This document shows, one piece after another, positions 38,697 to 42,490 of a stretch of 44,015 bases of DNA (within the stretch, counting starts at the first letter, position 1; each line of letters opens with the position of its first letter). Under the pieces are notes generated by a model. It was not told the DNA's origin and did not search any database. It saw only the letters and a list, made by a program, of their open reading frames with translations. Position numbers and translations under genes: made by a program. This stretch comes from Escherichia phage vB_VIPECOTPH05B, in sequence record PQ429080.1; one strand, 5' to 3'.

Positions 38697-38895
38697 AGTT
38701 TACTCTCCTTTGTTGTGGCATGATTGCCCTCTAGGGTACTCGTTAGAATACCCTATGAGAAATCACGCTAGAGATACTCACCCAATCCCTCGTACACCCA
38801 TTTTTGAGCGATTGCCCGCATAGGGATATCGAAGGCGTCCGCATCGTTCGCTGCGGGGCACAGGGCCCACCACTTGATAACCGGGACTTTATAAA

Positions 38896-39471
38896 TCATG
38901 CTGCCACCTTCAAAGTTGCGTCCAGTACAGCGCGTACATCCACGCCCTGATTGATAAGCATGCTCACCAAATCAGAGTCGCTTACGCCAGTCTCTTTAGC
39001 CTTCTTGATAGCGTTTTTAACGCGCCCCAGCGCCTGCAGGCGCACTGCATCGGCATCCAGTGCGTCATTCTTCACCTGCTCCGCTTCGGCGGCGTACAGG
39101 GCCATACAGGAGCTATAGAAGCTGGCTACAATCACTTCGCGGCCCTGCTTGTCAGCTTGTTTATAGTCCAGACGCATAGTGTCCAGTTCAATGCCCAGCT
39201 TCTCTGCCGAGGCGTAGCACTTCTTCGCGTTGAATTCGTACTTACCGGACTCTTTATTGAACTTGATAGGCAGCAGAGTACGCAGCACCATATCGAAGTC
39301 AGCAGCATCACTGCGCTGCATATCCGTAGCCCATGAGATGTTGCTGCTAATCAGGCCGTGAAAGAGCGCGCTGATAGTGATGTTACGTTTTGCTTCCACT
39401 ACGTCACCCAGCGCTTTGCGAATGCTGCCCGCAGCAGTGAGCTTGAATACTTTACCAGTTGAATGAGTCAT
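38896..39471 (-). CDS. Hypothetical early protein (191 aa)
   Basis: ATG with GAGGTG upstream; downstream of hairpin copy B; no recognisable motif. Confidence 0.5.
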   Translation of the reverse strand: MTHSTGKVFKLTAAGSIRKALGDVVEAKRNITISALFHGLISSNISWATDMQRSDAADFDMVLRTLLPIKFNKESGKYEFNAKKCYASAEKLGIELDTMRLDYKQADKQGREVIVASFYSSCMALYAAEAEQVKNDALDADAVRLQALGRVKNAIKKAKETGVSDSDLVSMLINQGVDVRAVLDATLKVAA

Positions 39472-39518
39472 AATGCACCTCGTTGATTGTTGGTTGTTTA
39501 CTTATCGAATTACTTCAC

Positions 39519-39540
39519 ATAGCACCCCATAGGATGCTAT
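39519..39540 (-). promoter_or_regulatory. Conserved intergenic hairpin, copy B
   Basis: Same stem-loop as copy A; one stem base pair is G:C in A and A:T in B (both partners changed), so pairing is preserved. Confidence 0.45.
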
Positions 39541-39549
39541 AGGCTGTAA

Positions 39550-39765
39550 TTAACGTCCGAACTGTCCGGCAGTGTACCAACCTTGCGGAGCCTTGCTGCT
39601 GCCCTTTGTTTTGGTCTTACCACGCACATTCGTGCTGAACGTGGCGGATTGCTTAGTCCGCATATACCCTGCGCGGTTCAGTGCATCCCGGCGCTTTCTC
39701 AATTCCGAACCGGATAACTTCTCCAGCCCAGCGAATTGCTGCGCTAACTTCTCACGATATTTCAT
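39550..39765 (-). CDS. Hypothetical small basic protein (about 71 aa), first gene after the ORF-free leader
   Basis: Start at first ATG (M6 of the track ORF) with AAGGAG 6 nt upstream; K/R-rich. Confidence 0.45.
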   Translation of the reverse strand: MKYREKLAQQFAGLEKLSGSELRKRRDALNRAGYMRTKQSATFSTNVRGKTKTKGSSKAPQGWYTAGQFGR

Positions 39766-40033
39766 TGCGTACTCCTTCAAAGTTAATGATTAACGCCCTA
39801 GCAGTATCTAGCAGGACGCTAACTCTTAACCTTGTTACCCACTGCACTACCGTGGAACCTGTGGTCAGGTCTCGGCGCTATTCTTTTAAGGGGCAGCGCC
39901 TCAGCGCCCCAGCCGTTTGTCGTCTCTGCTCTTGACGTTACATCTTTAATGCTACTGATTGTCTAGGATTGGTCGTCATCGTACCAGTCAAGGTACTGGG
40001 CCTCCCCGCAAACCAGCTTACTGCTTGCTATCT

Positions 40034-40062
40034 AAGTTACTCAGTGAATCAGAACTTGTCAA
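40034..40062 (-). promoter_or_regulatory. Candidate sigma70-type early promoter (TTGACA - 17 nt - TAACTT)
   Basis: Perfect -35 hexamer, 17-nt spacer, weak -10; in the ORF-free leader about 250 nt upstream of the first early gene. Confidence 0.3.
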
Positions 40063-40263
40063 GCGTTTATTTCTTACTGCATCGGGAGCCTGTTAACCTC
40101 CCCTGTGAGCTGTAGCCCCTCAGCGGGCGACTCTCTGGCTCCTGCCTTGCTCCACCACGGTGGGACACTTGCCGGGCTAGTCACGCCCTTGTTGGGTTGT
40201 AGTACCCTTCGGAACTGCTACCGTGGGAGCCGGTAGCGACCCTTACTACTTACTTCGGGATTC

Positions 40264-40292
40264 AATCTAGCTTATGTTCTTCGCGGTGTCAA
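40264..40292 (-). promoter_or_regulatory. Candidate sigma70-type early promoter (TTGACA - 17 nt - TAGATT) with A-rich upstream tract
   Basis: Minus strand reads GATAAAAAGAG-TTGACA-CCGCGAAGAACATAAGC-TAGATT; perfect -35, 17-nt spacer, 4 of 6 at -10. Confidence 0.4.
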
Positions 40293-40461
40293 CTCTTTTT
40301 ATCGAGTATCTAACCCTTCACACTATCTAGCCTTAATCCGGCGGAGCCTCCCGGCTAGGCCCCGGTTAGCCTAGCTAGTCGCTAGTGCCTCCCGGTGATT
40401 GAACTATAGCCCTATAGAACCAAAAGAAGCAAGCACTATTTTCAACTTTTTATCTCTGAGA

Positions 40462-40494
40462 GCAAAAAGGGTAAGCAGACCCCTAAAGGTCTGC
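40462..40494 (-). terminator. Possible terminator-like hairpin at the 3' end of the HNH gene
   Basis: GCAGACC-6 nt loop-GGTCTGC stem overlapping the HNH stop codon, followed on the minus transcript by UUACCCUUUUUG. Confidence 0.3.
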
Positions 40495-40869
40495 GTGCAG
40501 TAAGCTATTGTAATCCCCATAGGTTACGTCGAACTCTCGCCAGTTAGTGTCGTAGTCCGGACTAGCCAATAACTCCTCTTTTGTGAAACATCTCCCCTCC
40601 TTAATCTGCGCTAGGTGAATGGCGCGGTGAGTGTCGGCGCTAACCAATATCAGGTTATCAAAGGCGCAGTTAAGACGGTTACTGTCACAGTGATGTACAT
40701 GGTAGCCAGAGCCGTAGCTAGTGATACCCAGTGCATCCATAACCACGGCTCTATGCAGCGCCATAGTCCTACGGTCCTTTTTACCGTTCTTACGTATACA
40801 CGCTGGACCAGCACCGTTAATCACTGGATAGCCCTCTTTATCAACCACAATCTTAAATGTTCTAGCCAC
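40483..40869 (-). CDS. HNH endonuclease (third HNH gene in the window)
   Basis: 128 aa; HVHHCDSNRLNCAFDNLILVSADTHRAIH motif; apparent GTG start with TAAGGAG 8 nt upstream; flanked by the two longest ORF-free stretches. Confidence 0.7.
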   Translation of the reverse strand: MARTFKIVVDKEGYPVINGAGPACIRKNGKKDRRTMALHRAVVMDALGITSYGSGYHVHHCDSNRLNCAFDNLILVSADTHRAIHLAQIKEGRCFTKEELLASPDYDTNWREFDVTYGDYNSLLHADL

Positions 40870-40879
40870 AACAATAACT

Positions 40880-41694
40880 CCTTACATAGTGATGAGTAGC
40901 GTAACCATAGCGACGATATCCCGGAGGGATAGGAGCGGAGGTTACAAGATTCTAGGGATAGCAGCCTACTGCGTAGGCACAGGGCTATCCTAGTGAATAC
41001 CTAGTAGGGACTAGTAAGGACTAGTATTAAGTAGTGTGTATATAGTGCCCTAAAACCCTCCTACTCCGGTTACTTCATTTCATAATAGCTTTCGAATGAA
41101 AGTAAGAGCAAAGGGATAGCATTGGGATAGCGCTGGGATAGCGGCAGAGTGTGGATGTGCGCCCTAGTGGGGAGCGCGCAGCGTAGCATATAATTAGCAC
41201 AATGTAAAGCCCCAAGGATAGCCAGTGGATAGCCTAGTGCATACTAGGGATAGCACTAGGGATAGCACCACAGCGCACTAGCTGGCCCACTAGGCAGGCA
41301 CAAAATAAGCAAGGCAGAGCGCACCCCTATGGCCCACAGGGAGCGCACAGGGAGCGCCTAGTGAACGCACAGGGATAGCACCAGTGCCCCATAGAGCGCA
41401 CAGGAAGCCCTACAAGGCACGCACAGGCAAAGCCATAGGGTAGCACTAGCAATAGCCCTAGCGCAGCGCAGAGAGCCACTGAGGCCCACTGGTGCGCCCT
41501 AGCAGGCCCACCCAGTGCCCCCCCCCTAAATTGGCGCTAGGCACCCCCTATGGGGGCAATTGGGCGCGCTGAGGGTGAGGGACCCTGCCGCGTGAGTATA
41601 ATAAATTTCGGGTTCAGGTATAGACGTGCACCCGGATAGCCCCAGATAGCCCCACATAGACGCCCAGTGCTTACTCTAGTACTTACCCTAGCAC
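40880..41694. repeat. ORF-free repeat-rich region: at least 10 copies of GGATAGC plus CACAGGG/CACTAGG motifs, a C9 homopolymer and short tandem repeats; probable genome-terminus region
   Basis: No ORF of 60 aa or more on either strand across about 800 bp; GGATAGC at about 40956, 41114, 41125, 41136, 41216, 41227, 41248, 41259, 41373, 41634 (first three tandem copies spaced 11 bp); C-run at 41518..41526. Confidence 0.6.
41059..41080 (-). promoter_or_regulatory. Conserved element AAATGAAGTAACCGGAGTAGGA, copy 1 (candidate phage-RNAP promoter)
   Basis: 21 of 22 nt identical to the copy after the RNAP gene; lies in the repeat region upstream of the HNH gene. Confidence 0.35.
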
Positions 41695-41880
41695 TTATTC
41701 TGCGATAGCCCCGGAGGCCCGCAGGGACGCTAACAGGGCCGCCAGAGTAACCGCCAGTGCCTCTGCCGTAGTATCGGTAGCATCAGCTACAGCAACCCCT
41801 TGCAGTACCCCGCCGATAGAGTCCGTAGTAGCTTCCGGTAATACCGGTGCCTTTGCTTGTACAAGCTCAACCAGTGCCAT
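41695..41880 (-). CDS. Hypothetical small protein (61 aa) at the distal end of the lysis cassette
   Basis: ATG 1 nt after the endolysin stop; Ala/Val/Thr-rich with a hydrophobic C-terminal stretch; no lipobox. Confidence 0.4.
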   Translation of the reverse strand: MALVELVQAKAPVLPEATTDSIGGVLQGVAVADATDTTAEALAVTLAALLASLRASGAIAE

Positions 41881-41881
41881 A

Positions 41882-42490
41882 TTAACCTCCTACCCCTTTA
41901 AGCGCAGCGATTGCTGCATTCACATTCTTGTACTGGTTCCCAATAGCTTTGCTCTGCCACTGCCTGCGCTCCCATAGGCCCCAGCACACTTTATTGCGCT
42001 GCCCGTTAACGTATTGGGAACAGTCGAAGGTCCAGCGGTTGCCGCCCTTGTACACCCAGCCAGTGCCGGGGGACTTCTGCTGGTACTTGCTAATATAGCG
42101 CCAGTCCAGCACAGCCTTCGCGGCCGATGCATAATCAAGGCTTTTGAGGTGGCGCTTCACGGAGCTTCCGTTGAAACCCGCCACGCCTACGTTGTACGTG
42201 AAGTCCAGGGCACCTAGCAGGGCCACGTCAGAGAGCTGCATAGGAAGCCCGTCAAGAGCTTTTGCATGCTCCCCTGCTGATTGTATCAGTTGCTTCTGAC
42301 AATCGCTCAGCGTGGCTCTCTGGCCCATTTTGACGCCCTTTGTCTCACCGTAGCAGATAGTCGGGACACCGGCGCTATCCTTATAGGCAGTAAGGCTCAA
42401 CCCCTCGTTATGCTGCACCACCCCGGTAATAGCGCCGCCAAGCATAGTGGCCCCCGTAAGGGCCGCCACAACCTTAGTCCTTAAACTCAT
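41882..42490 (-). CDS. SAR endolysin, T4-lysozyme-type muramidase (GH24-like)
   Basis: 202 aa; weakly hydrophobic Gly/Ala-rich N-terminus (KVVAALTGATMLGGAITGVV) followed by the catalytic E-x8-D-x5-T pattern (NEGLSLTAYKDSAGVPT); start overlaps the holin 3' end. Confidence 0.85.
   Translation of the reverse strand: MSLRTKVVAALTGATMLGGAITGVVQHNEGLSLTAYKDSAGVPTICYGETKGVKMGQRATLSDCQKQLIQSAGEHAKALDGLPMQLSDVALLGALDFTYNVGVAGFNGSSVKRHLKSLDYASAAKAVLDWRYISKYQQKSPGTGWVYKGGNRWTFDCSQYVNGQRNKVCWGLWERRQWQSKAIGNQYKNVNAAIAALKGVGG

Follow-up and report, generated by a model that had tools for sequence, protein, structure and literature searches.

A described counterpart of the locus analysed here is the early leader of T7 and T3, in which the tandem host promoters A1–A3 are followed by a long untranslated stretch with a boxA, the RNase III site R0.3 and gene 0.3, and which precedes the first anti-host gene. 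Two further kinds of phage RNA invite comparison. The put RNA of HK022 is about 70 nucleotides (nt) long, consists of two hairpins, acts in cis to make host RNA polymerase resistant to termination and is a constant component of the operons to which it belongs. RNA-based counter-defence is exemplified by the pseudo-ToxI repeats directed against ToxIN and by RNA anti-CRISPRs, which are solitary repeats; such RNAs mimic a recognisable host RNA, either the repeat of an antitoxin or that of a CRISPR array. The subject of this work is a window of 44,015 nt from Escherichia phage vB_VIPECOTPH05B (PQ429080.1), which represents a KP34-like Klebsiella podovirus (Drulisvirus) in circularly permuted form and has every gene on the minus strand, and within it the untranslated leader at 40482–39766, which runs from an HNH-endonuclease insertion to the first early gene, gene 1. 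In this leader we describe two RNA domains, X, close to the first of two predicted host promoters, and D, in the 5′ untranslated region of gene 1. Judged by covariation, they are two candidate families of structured RNA that are unregistered, beyond what had been proposed by the sequence-only reading, an earlier annotation of the bare letters as an open reading frame (ORF)-free, hairpin-rich leader. The explanation that fits best, and that we hold to be probable overall, is that X would be an accessory early RNA with a host factor as its binding partner and D a leader that acts in cis.

Like the T7/T3 leader, that of the window has tandem host promoters, here predicted, and a long untranslated region, and in the T3-like phage phiYeO3-12 X lies between a host promoter and R0.3. 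T7 and T3 themselves, however, lack X, the window lacks a boxA, and X has no helix long enough for an R0.3-type site: compared with an imperfect hairpin of ~20 bp, no helix of X exceeds 7 bp and none of D exceeds 8 bp. Both put and X are folded RNAs that are encoded close behind early phage promoters and have no gene for a partner protein in the vicinity, but X is optional, is bypassed by a predicted downstream promoter and, with 159 nt, nine helices and two pseudoknots, does not have the put-type architecture of ~70 nt and two stem-loops. With the counter-defence RNAs X shares that it is non-coding, patchy, horizontally acquired and, by prediction, early; it differs from them in showing neither a repeat structure nor a host homologue in the genomes and plasmids searched. 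Like orphan Rfam-type motifs, X and D owe their definition to conservation and covariation, and they match no model of Rfam 15.

The decisive evidence for structure is comparative, not thermodynamic. In a MAFFT alignment of 21 distinct X sequences, which was not fitted to the structure, 99.8% of the 819 pair cells are canonical, versus 31–42% when the 3′ partners are slid as a control, and 19 of the 39 pairs have changed on both sides (covariation score 0.461 versus 0.140 in shuffled alignments, with none of 500 shuffles reaching the observed value). Compensatory changes could already be recognised by eye in a plain MAFFT alignment. When the alignment was instead built with the model and covered 25 distinct sequences, 99.8% of 974 pair cells were canonical, versus 31–43% with slid partners, and the other numbers were the same. 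Each of the 70 wobble cells is G·U on the sense strand and none is A·C, pairing being 99.8% on the sense and 92.7% on the antisense strand, which indicates that X is a structure of RNA (or of the non-template strand) read the way early transcription runs. About half of the positions of X are invariant across three subfamilies, and these include loops and junctions. The same data bear on the idea that the conservation reflects signals in DNA, such as extra promoters, protein-binding sites or signals for entry or replication. There are TTGAC-like motifs in the loops of helices P3 and P6, and in phiYeO3-12 the P6 loop is the –35 element of a good promoter-like site, at which ETEP21B has an annotated promoter. 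Yet the 19 compensatory pairs keep complementarity while the sequence changes, and binding sites in DNA do not predict 70 wobble cells that pair on the sense strand only, so we give this idea scarcely any weight.

The model of X (Table 1) opens with a pseudoknot of the H type. Its helix P1 is the GCTACCG/CGGTAGC repeat, with compensatory changes at 4 of 7 pairs, and PK1, which joins the 5′ flank to the loop of helix P1, has a covarying pair that occurs as G:C, C:G and A:U and is unpaired in none of the 25 sequences; crossing stems kept by compensation are thus seen for PK1/P1, and in weaker form for P5a/P5b. A pairing of the helix-P1 loop with GGAGC in J4/5 was considered and rejected, since the loop position that covaries has its partner in the 5′ flank. 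In helix P3 the compensatory pairs are of the types GC/AU/UA and CG/GC/UG, and in helix P4 compensation is found at 3 of 3 pairs of P4a and 2 of 4 of P4b. A further GNC/GNC helix of 2–3 bp might close the P4 domain (~40173–40171 with 40142–40140), but it was seen by eye and its register is ambiguous. The 3′ pseudoknot is the weakest part of the model: one pair of P5a goes from C:G to U:A in 2 sequences and one pair of P5b from A:U to C:G in phage 6937, and all other pairs are invariant. Helix P6, finally, is the GGGAG/CTCCC repeat. The sequence-only reading had suspected a structured leader from several perfect inverted repeats, of which it quoted three; these three are all present, the first two at the positions of helices P1 and P6 and the third, CTAGGC/GCCTAG, at 40355–40360/40369–40374. 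Its suspicion is strongly supported for the first two, which belong to the covarying domain X, and by the existence of a second domain near gene 1; the alignment with related phages that it had suggested as a check thus gave two covarying domains. The third hairpin is not conserved, its GCCTAG arm being GCAGAG in Kp2, AttikonH1 and SU503. On these comparative grounds, the structures of X and D are almost certainly real.

A protein with a non-standard start, for X or for D, or hairpins arisen by chance in a neutral spacer, would be another way to read the stretch. In its favour it can be said that small hypothetical ORFs are annotated over the region in some relatives and that short inverted repeats are only modestly enriched. 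Still, for X no frame is open in all homologues, indels of 1 nt and 4 nt separate the lineages, and the variable columns are distributed 26/27/22 over the codon phases. The small-ORF reading of X was therefore rejected; a coding gene, which the sequence-only reading had named as an outcome that would overturn it, is not what we see for X, there being no conserved frame and no 3-nt periodicity. A neutral spacer is excluded by identities of 71–83% across subfamilies together with the covariation. We attach next to no credence to this whole class of explanations.

X behaves as an optional element. With blastn, window positions 40254–40087 match leaders of phages from other subfamilies at 73–83% identity, and X is found, 71–83% identical, in ~69 phages of three subfamilies (blastn with the leader; taxonomy lines checked), that is in ~69 of 50,697 phage records, as compared with 239 Klebsiella phage records that share parts of the leader. 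Outside Drulisvirus the carriers include K5-2 and PEA128 (Przondovirus), PRF-SP2, CHX131 and Vec13 (Kayfunavirus), ETEP21B and JSS2 (Berlinvirus), phiYeO3-12 (Teetrevirus) and 6937 (Melnykvirinae). In each of these groups carriers are a minority, and the location is always the early leader. X is also absent from most Drulisviruses: a covariance model finds it in the window and finds none in T7, T3, KP34, KP32 or 36 other Drulisvirus loci. Close pairs differ in it, since phiYeO3-12 has X and T3 does not, and the window phage has X and KP34 does not. When IMG/VR was scanned with patterns for distant forms of X, only known members, or known members and chance matches, were returned, the chance matches all at no more than 17 bits.

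The place that X takes is a variable slot between promoter P1 and the conserved block GCUGGUUUGCGGGGAGGCCCAGUACCUUGACUGGUACGAUGACGACC, which, two exceptions aside, follows promoter P1 in every P1-bearing leader examined; the slot measures 15–398 nt in these leaders. It can hold nothing (KP34), promoter P2 alone, X with P2 (the window), another element, Y, with P2, or other inserts. X and promoter P2 form a cassette absent from the 'empty' leaders of the KP34 type. The phage RCIP0210 (locus L016, 394–563; also L027) carries a mosaic, in which the P1–P3 part of X is identical to the type of Przondovirus K5-2 and the P4 part is 1 nt off the Drulisvirus/Melnykvirinae type; this points to recent exchange among Klebsiella phages, with recombination inside X between phages of different subfamilies. 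Very probably, then, X is an accessory module that is exchanged horizontally. We also observed that the cassette borders all carry (G/A)(C/T)AGTAAG repeats (in the window, for example, at 40254–40243 and 40078–40071), one order of elements being GTAAGTAGTAAGG, X, GCAGTAAG, promoter P2 and again GCAGTAAG, and that GCAGTA(A/G)G likewise flanks X in T3-like and Kayfunavirus phages. They might be sites of recombination, or else what is left of promoter –10 regions.

In other Drulisviruses the slot is occupied by cassette Y (for example in SU503, locus L004, 1072–1172, and in loci L049, L062 and L073), which is present in 59 phage records, among them those of the Pectobacterium phages Arno160, phiPccP-1 and PP2. 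By eye, Y has three stems with compensatory changes, so a second structured RNA of the leader that can be exchanged is probable. The slot can also hold Z (loci L043 and L061), V (L063) or an extra cassette (L029). With considerable reserve we suggest that the early leaders of enterobacterial T7-like phages might contain a recombination hot spot, with repeats of the GCAGTAAG type on its flanks, at which RNA-only cassettes for counter-defence or take-over (X, Y and others), a new class of such factors, are swapped. Such cassettes would be transcribed by the host polymerase within seconds of DNA entry, before phage proteins are made, and X would be the first of them to be defined structurally.

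X does not belong to any registered class of RNA that we searched for. Rfam 15 (4227 models) gives no match at the gathering threshold in the whole window, and at E ≤ 10 in 39500–41800 only two chance matches to miRNA models, both outside X and D; ARAGORN finds no tRNA or tmRNA gene. The X sequence strings were not found in the papers searched, and keyword searches found no account of such an RNA. A sensor of the riboswitch kind, that is an aptamer for a metabolite or ion that tunes early expression, would agree with the size (~160 nt), with the multi-helix pseudoknotted fold and its aptamer-like invariant junctions, and with the position in a 5′ leader. There is, however, no expression platform: the terminator scan finds no terminator-like site between 40084 and gene 1, and so no terminator/anti-terminator alternative after X, and the nearest ribosome-binding site in the window is more than 300 nt away. 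The downstream genes, moreover, vary by lineage (SAM hydrolase, Ocr-like, unknown proteins), and no Rfam riboswitch matches even at E ≤ 10, all of which makes a riboswitch very unlikely. Since no intrinsic terminator follows X, it is not a free-standing small-RNA gene either, although promoter P1 is present; the small RNA that the sequence-only reading had thought possible is in this form not borne out.

We also looked for X in hosts. Neither 5,426 E. coli genomes nor 72,556 plasmids contain a blastn match, and a pattern for the 24-nt core of X has 7 matches in 596 Gb of bacterial genomes, none of which extends beyond the core (nhmmer partials, E 0.0006 or weaker). After these searches an origin in the host, or mimicry of it, was rejected. 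The top match of the covariance model outside phages lies in Pseudomonas parasichuanensis (locus L038, 2781–2898, minus strand, 23 bits), where it is flanked by two ORFs, of 212 and 204 aa, that point away from each other, and overlaps a mechanical ORF of 82 aa. It has parts like P1, P4, P5 and P6 and lacks P2 and P3. We take this match as chance, because the locus had been pre-selected by the 24-nt core and the variable P5 pairs are broken.

The position of X relative to promoters is the main argument of a rival explanation that we consider rather unlikely, according to which X is a cis-acting leader element. It could make the host polymerase resistant to Rho or to pausing, as put of HK022 does, or shield the 5′ end against RNase E and RppH, and the outcome would be higher expression of early genes or aid to a genome entry that is driven by transcription. 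Indeed, X starts 2 to ~15 nt from the predicted start of a host promoter in three lineages, Przondovirus, T3-like phages and Drulisvirus (~15 in the window); in phiYeO3-12, for example, TTGACA-17-TAGGAT at 628–656 stands directly before X (blastn match 667–825). As no terminator follows, X is always part of a long untranslated leader, and the leaders of Drulisvirus, which are without the boxA of Studiervirinae, would have room for another device of anti-termination. Several observations oppose this. Close relatives with the same downstream operon do without X, KP34 as compared with the window and T3 as compared with phiYeO3-12, and another promoter usually lies downstream of X, P2 in the window and in phiYeO3-12 the promoter-like TTGACA-17-TAAGAT directly after X (816–844), which would give transcripts that lack it. 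The latter site is missing from the RefSeq annotation, and its –35 TTGACA is the loop of helix P6; in ETEP21B the corresponding position bears an annotated promoter. Since the near-isogenic phages without X share the operon and the second promoter bypasses X, X does not seem to be needed for the expression of early genes. Simple hairpins, furthermore, would be enough to protect a 5′ end, yet the loops and junctions of X are invariant across subfamilies, and its fold is unlike the two-hairpin put RNA.

A further point against a cis-acting X is that those Studiervirinae which bear it have a boxA already. The exact rrn-type boxA GCTCTTTAACAA is found in every fetched early leader of Studiervirinae and in Melnykvirinae phage 6937, with or without X (among others T7 813–824, T3 781–792, KP32 659–670, phiYeO3-12 915–926), and has no match at up to 2 mismatches in the leader of the window. 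A link between X and boxA was rejected on the same facts.

We return to X as an accessory RNA that binds a host factor. The host RNA polymerase would initiate at promoter P1 once the left end has entered the cell, and X would be the first phage RNA. With its compact, pseudoknotted fold it could bind a host protein or a small ligand, and its most plausible role would be counter-defence or host take-over at the level of RNA, before any phage protein exists. It might act while still joined to the leader, or be freed first by a cut in the A/U-rich linker 3′ of helix P6. An accessory anti-host role is suggested by the patchy distribution, the spread across subfamilies, the hypervariable slot, the invariant loops and junctions and the earliest expression; that X specifically binds a host factor or serves counter-defence is, by analogy, a tentative proposal. 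It should be noted that a number of points weigh against this picture. Nothing ties X to any defence system, so that counter-defence would follow from distribution, timing and analogy only. The 25 sequences of X represent ~5 clades, and the independent compensatory events are probably far fewer than the cell counts. Every pseudoknot stem of X depends on just one pair that covaries, and two cells of P5a are mismatched. Taken by itself, X does not surpass shuffled sequence in folding, the z-scores of the minimum free energy (MFE) being –0.02 and +0.49 on the two strands, and it would thus be missed by thermodynamics alone. No promoter that passes the scan is found directly upstream of X in Kayfunavirus PRF-SP2 or phage 6937. 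Finally, the lack of a terminator and the use of the P6 loop as a –35 element in T3-like phages would fit a purely cis-acting or DNA-level role equally well.

We now turn to domain D. In an alignment of 10 sequences, which include Pectobacterium phage PP16 and Erwinia phage Micant, 98.4% of cells are paired, as against 35–50% with slid partners, 16 of 28 pairs are compensatory, and none of 500 shuffles reaches the observed value on all five measures; on the antisense strand pairing falls to 93.0%. Stems A and B, which cross as an H-type pseudoknot, have 3 compensatory pairs each. The segment 39913–39815 is common to the window, PP16 (Corkvirinae) and Micant, and PP16 is 86% identical to the window in the leader segment and 61% in the gene-1 protein (PP16 gp01). 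KP34 and KpV475 retain only the pseudoknot and hairpins C and D, before a different downstream sequence. D accompanies gene 1, with its 3′ border ~14 nt upstream of the Shine-Dalgarno sequence of that gene, and is most likely a cis-regulatory element that controls translation or stability of the gene-1 mRNA. The gene-1 protein matches phrog_6352 and has no Pfam match; that this basic protein binds D and regulates itself is our conjecture. A similar arrangement is known from the leader of T4 gene 32: both open with an H-type pseudoknot in the 5′ untranslated region of a small early gene and both co-vary with their own gene across phages, but there is no relation in sequence.

The promoters on either side of X were already known, as predictions only, and it is the surroundings that appear new. 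The host early promoters of Kp34-like phages have been listed in silico as TTGACACCGCGAAG(A/G)ACATAAGCTAGATT and TTGACAAGTT(C/A)(T/C)GATTCACTGAGTAACTT (Eriksson 2015, PMC4411677, Table 3); they have the same sequences and the same place upstream of the first operon as promoters P1 and P2 of the window, and that paper, which lists promoters only, makes no mention of RNA domains, of a variable slot or of anything shared with T7-like phages. The window at 40292–40264 (minus strand) fits the first of these formulas, and promoter P1 fits the predicted host promoter of KP34, SU503, SU552A and F19; it is annotated in the KP34 and SU503 records, and its core, taken as far as TAGATTGAATCC and with two positions left free, was found in 37 IMG/VR stretches. 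In a scan of 38800–42000 it is the sole sigma-70-type site that passes (10 of 12 matches), this one site standing against 2.6 in shuffles. Promoter P2 is below the threshold of the scan, its –10 TAACTT matching 3 of 6 positions, and agrees with the promoter predicted for NTUH-K2044-K1-1 and, at 1–2 changes, with those predicted for F19 and SU503 (PMC4411677). The two minus-strand TTGACA hexamers with 17-nt spacers, which had led the sequence-only reading to expect early promoters for host RNA polymerase, are therefore present, starting at 40292 and 40062, and supported as predictions, both matching Kp34-like promoters; the leader holds 2 of the 10 TTGACA hexamers on the minus strand of the whole 44 kb. 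Between gene 1 and gene 2 (39508–39551, minus strand) we noticed the palindromic motif AGCCTATAGCATCCTATGGGGTGCTATGTGAA, which is the 'putative phage promoter' of Eriksson 2015 (PMC4411677) and failed as a template for KP34 RNA polymerase (PMC6834552).

As for the window as a whole, its sequence agrees at 100% identity with that of Klebsiella phage vB_VIPKPNTPH03 and of the siblings of this phage (Autographiviridae, Slopekvirinae, Drulisvirus). The records of Kp2, phiKpS2 and AttikonH1 start at about 41500–41650 of the window, where AttikonH1 annotates a direct terminal repeat, so the window is a permuted assembly with its physical left end at ~41500–41650. The non-coding end region (~41094–41460 and ~41500–41650) has arrays of GGGATAGC-type repeats at a spacing of 11–12 nt. 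Read along the minus strand, the lysis genes are followed by this repeat-rich region, the HNH endonuclease, the leader 40482–39781 and gene 1. Most related Drulisviruses lack the HNH gene, for which reason it looks like an insertion of a free-standing homing endonuclease. A terminator-like site was called at 40484→40467 (minus strand), the HNH ORF ending at 40483, and this hairpin overlaps the first ~20 nt of the stretch studied. The insertion replaces the sequence just 5′ of the block at 40300–40474, and at the replaced site a promoter, TTGCCCTGCTTACC..., was predicted in SU552A by Eriksson 2015 (PMC4411677). From 5′ to 3′ the leader consists of that conserved block, promoter P1, X, promoter P2, a second conserved block, D and the ribosome-binding site of gene 1. 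The hairpin inside block GCUGGUUUGCGGGGAGGCCCAGUACCUUGACUGGUACGAUGACGACC is nearly invariant.

The absence of any ORF of 60 aa or more within 39781–40482 is correctly stated in the sequence-only reading (the largest internal one has 48 aa), and the true non-coding stretch extends to the gene-1 ATG at 39765. Two plus-strand ORFs that begin outside, of 84 aa (39681–39935) and 73 aa (39572–39793), intrude at the low end and are antisense to the first early gene. Its description of the leader as rich in hairpins holds in part: perfect inverted repeats of 5 bp number 16, versus 7.0 ± 3.3 in shuffled sequence (6 of 500 shuffles as high), which is modestly above chance, but for those of 6 bp and 7 bp there is no significant excess, and among 124 other tiles of the window 24 have as many inverted repeats as the stretch. 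The MFE z-score of the whole region is –2.7 (20 shuffles).

Table 1. Coordinates of RNA domains, promoters, genes and conserved blocks in and around the early leader of the window
Feature	Position	Strand	Remarks
RNA domain X	40084-40242	-	159 nt, nine helices including two H-type pseudoknots; MAFFT covariation alignment
X 5′ pseudoknot	40217-40242	-	PK1 40242-40239 with 40230-40227; helix P1 40237-40231 with 40223-40217
X helix P2	40194-40207	-	40207-40204 with 40197-40194; loop ACUACA; 2/4 pairs compensatory, 100% paired
X helix P3	40174-40188	-	40188-40185 with 40177-40174; 7-nt loop YUGACYA; 2/4 pairs compensatory, 100% paired
X helix P4	40144-40166	-	P4a 40166-40164 with 40146-40144; P4b 40163-40160 with 40155-40152; 5-nt internal loop
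X 3′ pseudoknot	40106-40128	-	P5a 40128-40125 with 40118-40115; P5b 40122-40119 with 40109-40106; most conserved segment GCCCGCUGAGGGGCUACAGCUCA
X helix P6	40084-40102	-	40102-40098 with 40088-40084; 9-nt loop GUURNCARG; 3/5 pairs compensatory, up to four pair types
RNA domain D	39791-39910	-	120 nt, H-type pseudoknot and three hairpins; 5′ untranslated region of gene 1; alignment of 10 sequences
D stem A	39910-39906 with 39894-39890	-	pseudoknot
D stem B	39900-39895 with 39879-39874	-	pseudoknot
D hairpin C	39870-39866 with 39861-39857	-	
D hairpin D	39855-39852 with 39842-39839	-	
D hairpin E	39821-39814 with 39798-39791	-	
Gene 1	39550-39777	-	Shine-Dalgarno AAGGAG 39777-39772, ATG 39765-39763; 71-aa basic protein; coding sequence annotated in TPH03
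Promoter P1 (predicted)	40264-40292	-	TTGACA 40292-40287, 17-nt spacer, TAGATT 40269-40264; predicted start ~40257
Promoter P2 (predicted)	40034-40062	-	TTGACA 40062-40057, 17-nt spacer, TAACTT 40039-40034; read from sequence; weaker than P1
Leader block upstream of promoter P1	40300-40474	-	175 nt, almost invariant in 40-sequence Drulisvirus alignment; includes the CTAGGC/GCCTAG repeat
Conserved block GCUGGUUUGCGGGGAGGCCCAGUACCUUGACUGGUACGAUGACGACC	39960-40020	-	downstream edge of variable slot
Hairpin GUACC-UUGACU-GGUAC	39996-39981	-	inside block GCUGGUUUGCGGGGAGGCCCAGUACCUUGACUGGUACGAUGACGACC
HNH endonuclease gene	40869-40483	-	PF13392, phrog_7545; absent from most related Drulisviruses
Terminator-like hairpin	40462-40494	-	GCAGACC-UUUAGG-GGUCUGC then UUACCCUUUUUG; read from sequence; 3′ end of HNH insertion

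The sequence-only reading saw real features whose significance is not judgeable from one sequence; what it missed is that the structured part is, as far as the alignments indicate, an optional cassette common to T3-like and other T7-like phages. Drulisvirus and Przondovirus are leading candidates for phage therapy of Klebsiella, and T7-like phages are among the best-studied viruses, but the leaders of such phages are usually annotated as empty or with spurious small ORFs. An element that is conserved and yet present or absent between near-isogenic phages points to an accessory function of RNA at the first moment of infection, and phiYeO3-12/T3 and the window phage/KP34 are natural pairs with and without X in which the question is directly testable. 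If X is only cis-acting, X and D would still be two new RNA families, and the annotation of these genomes would need correcting. If X is indeed an RNA for counter-defence or for binding a host factor, it would add a layer of RNA beside the early anti-host proteins Ocr, SAM hydrolase and gp0.7, which may be relevant for the engineering of host range.

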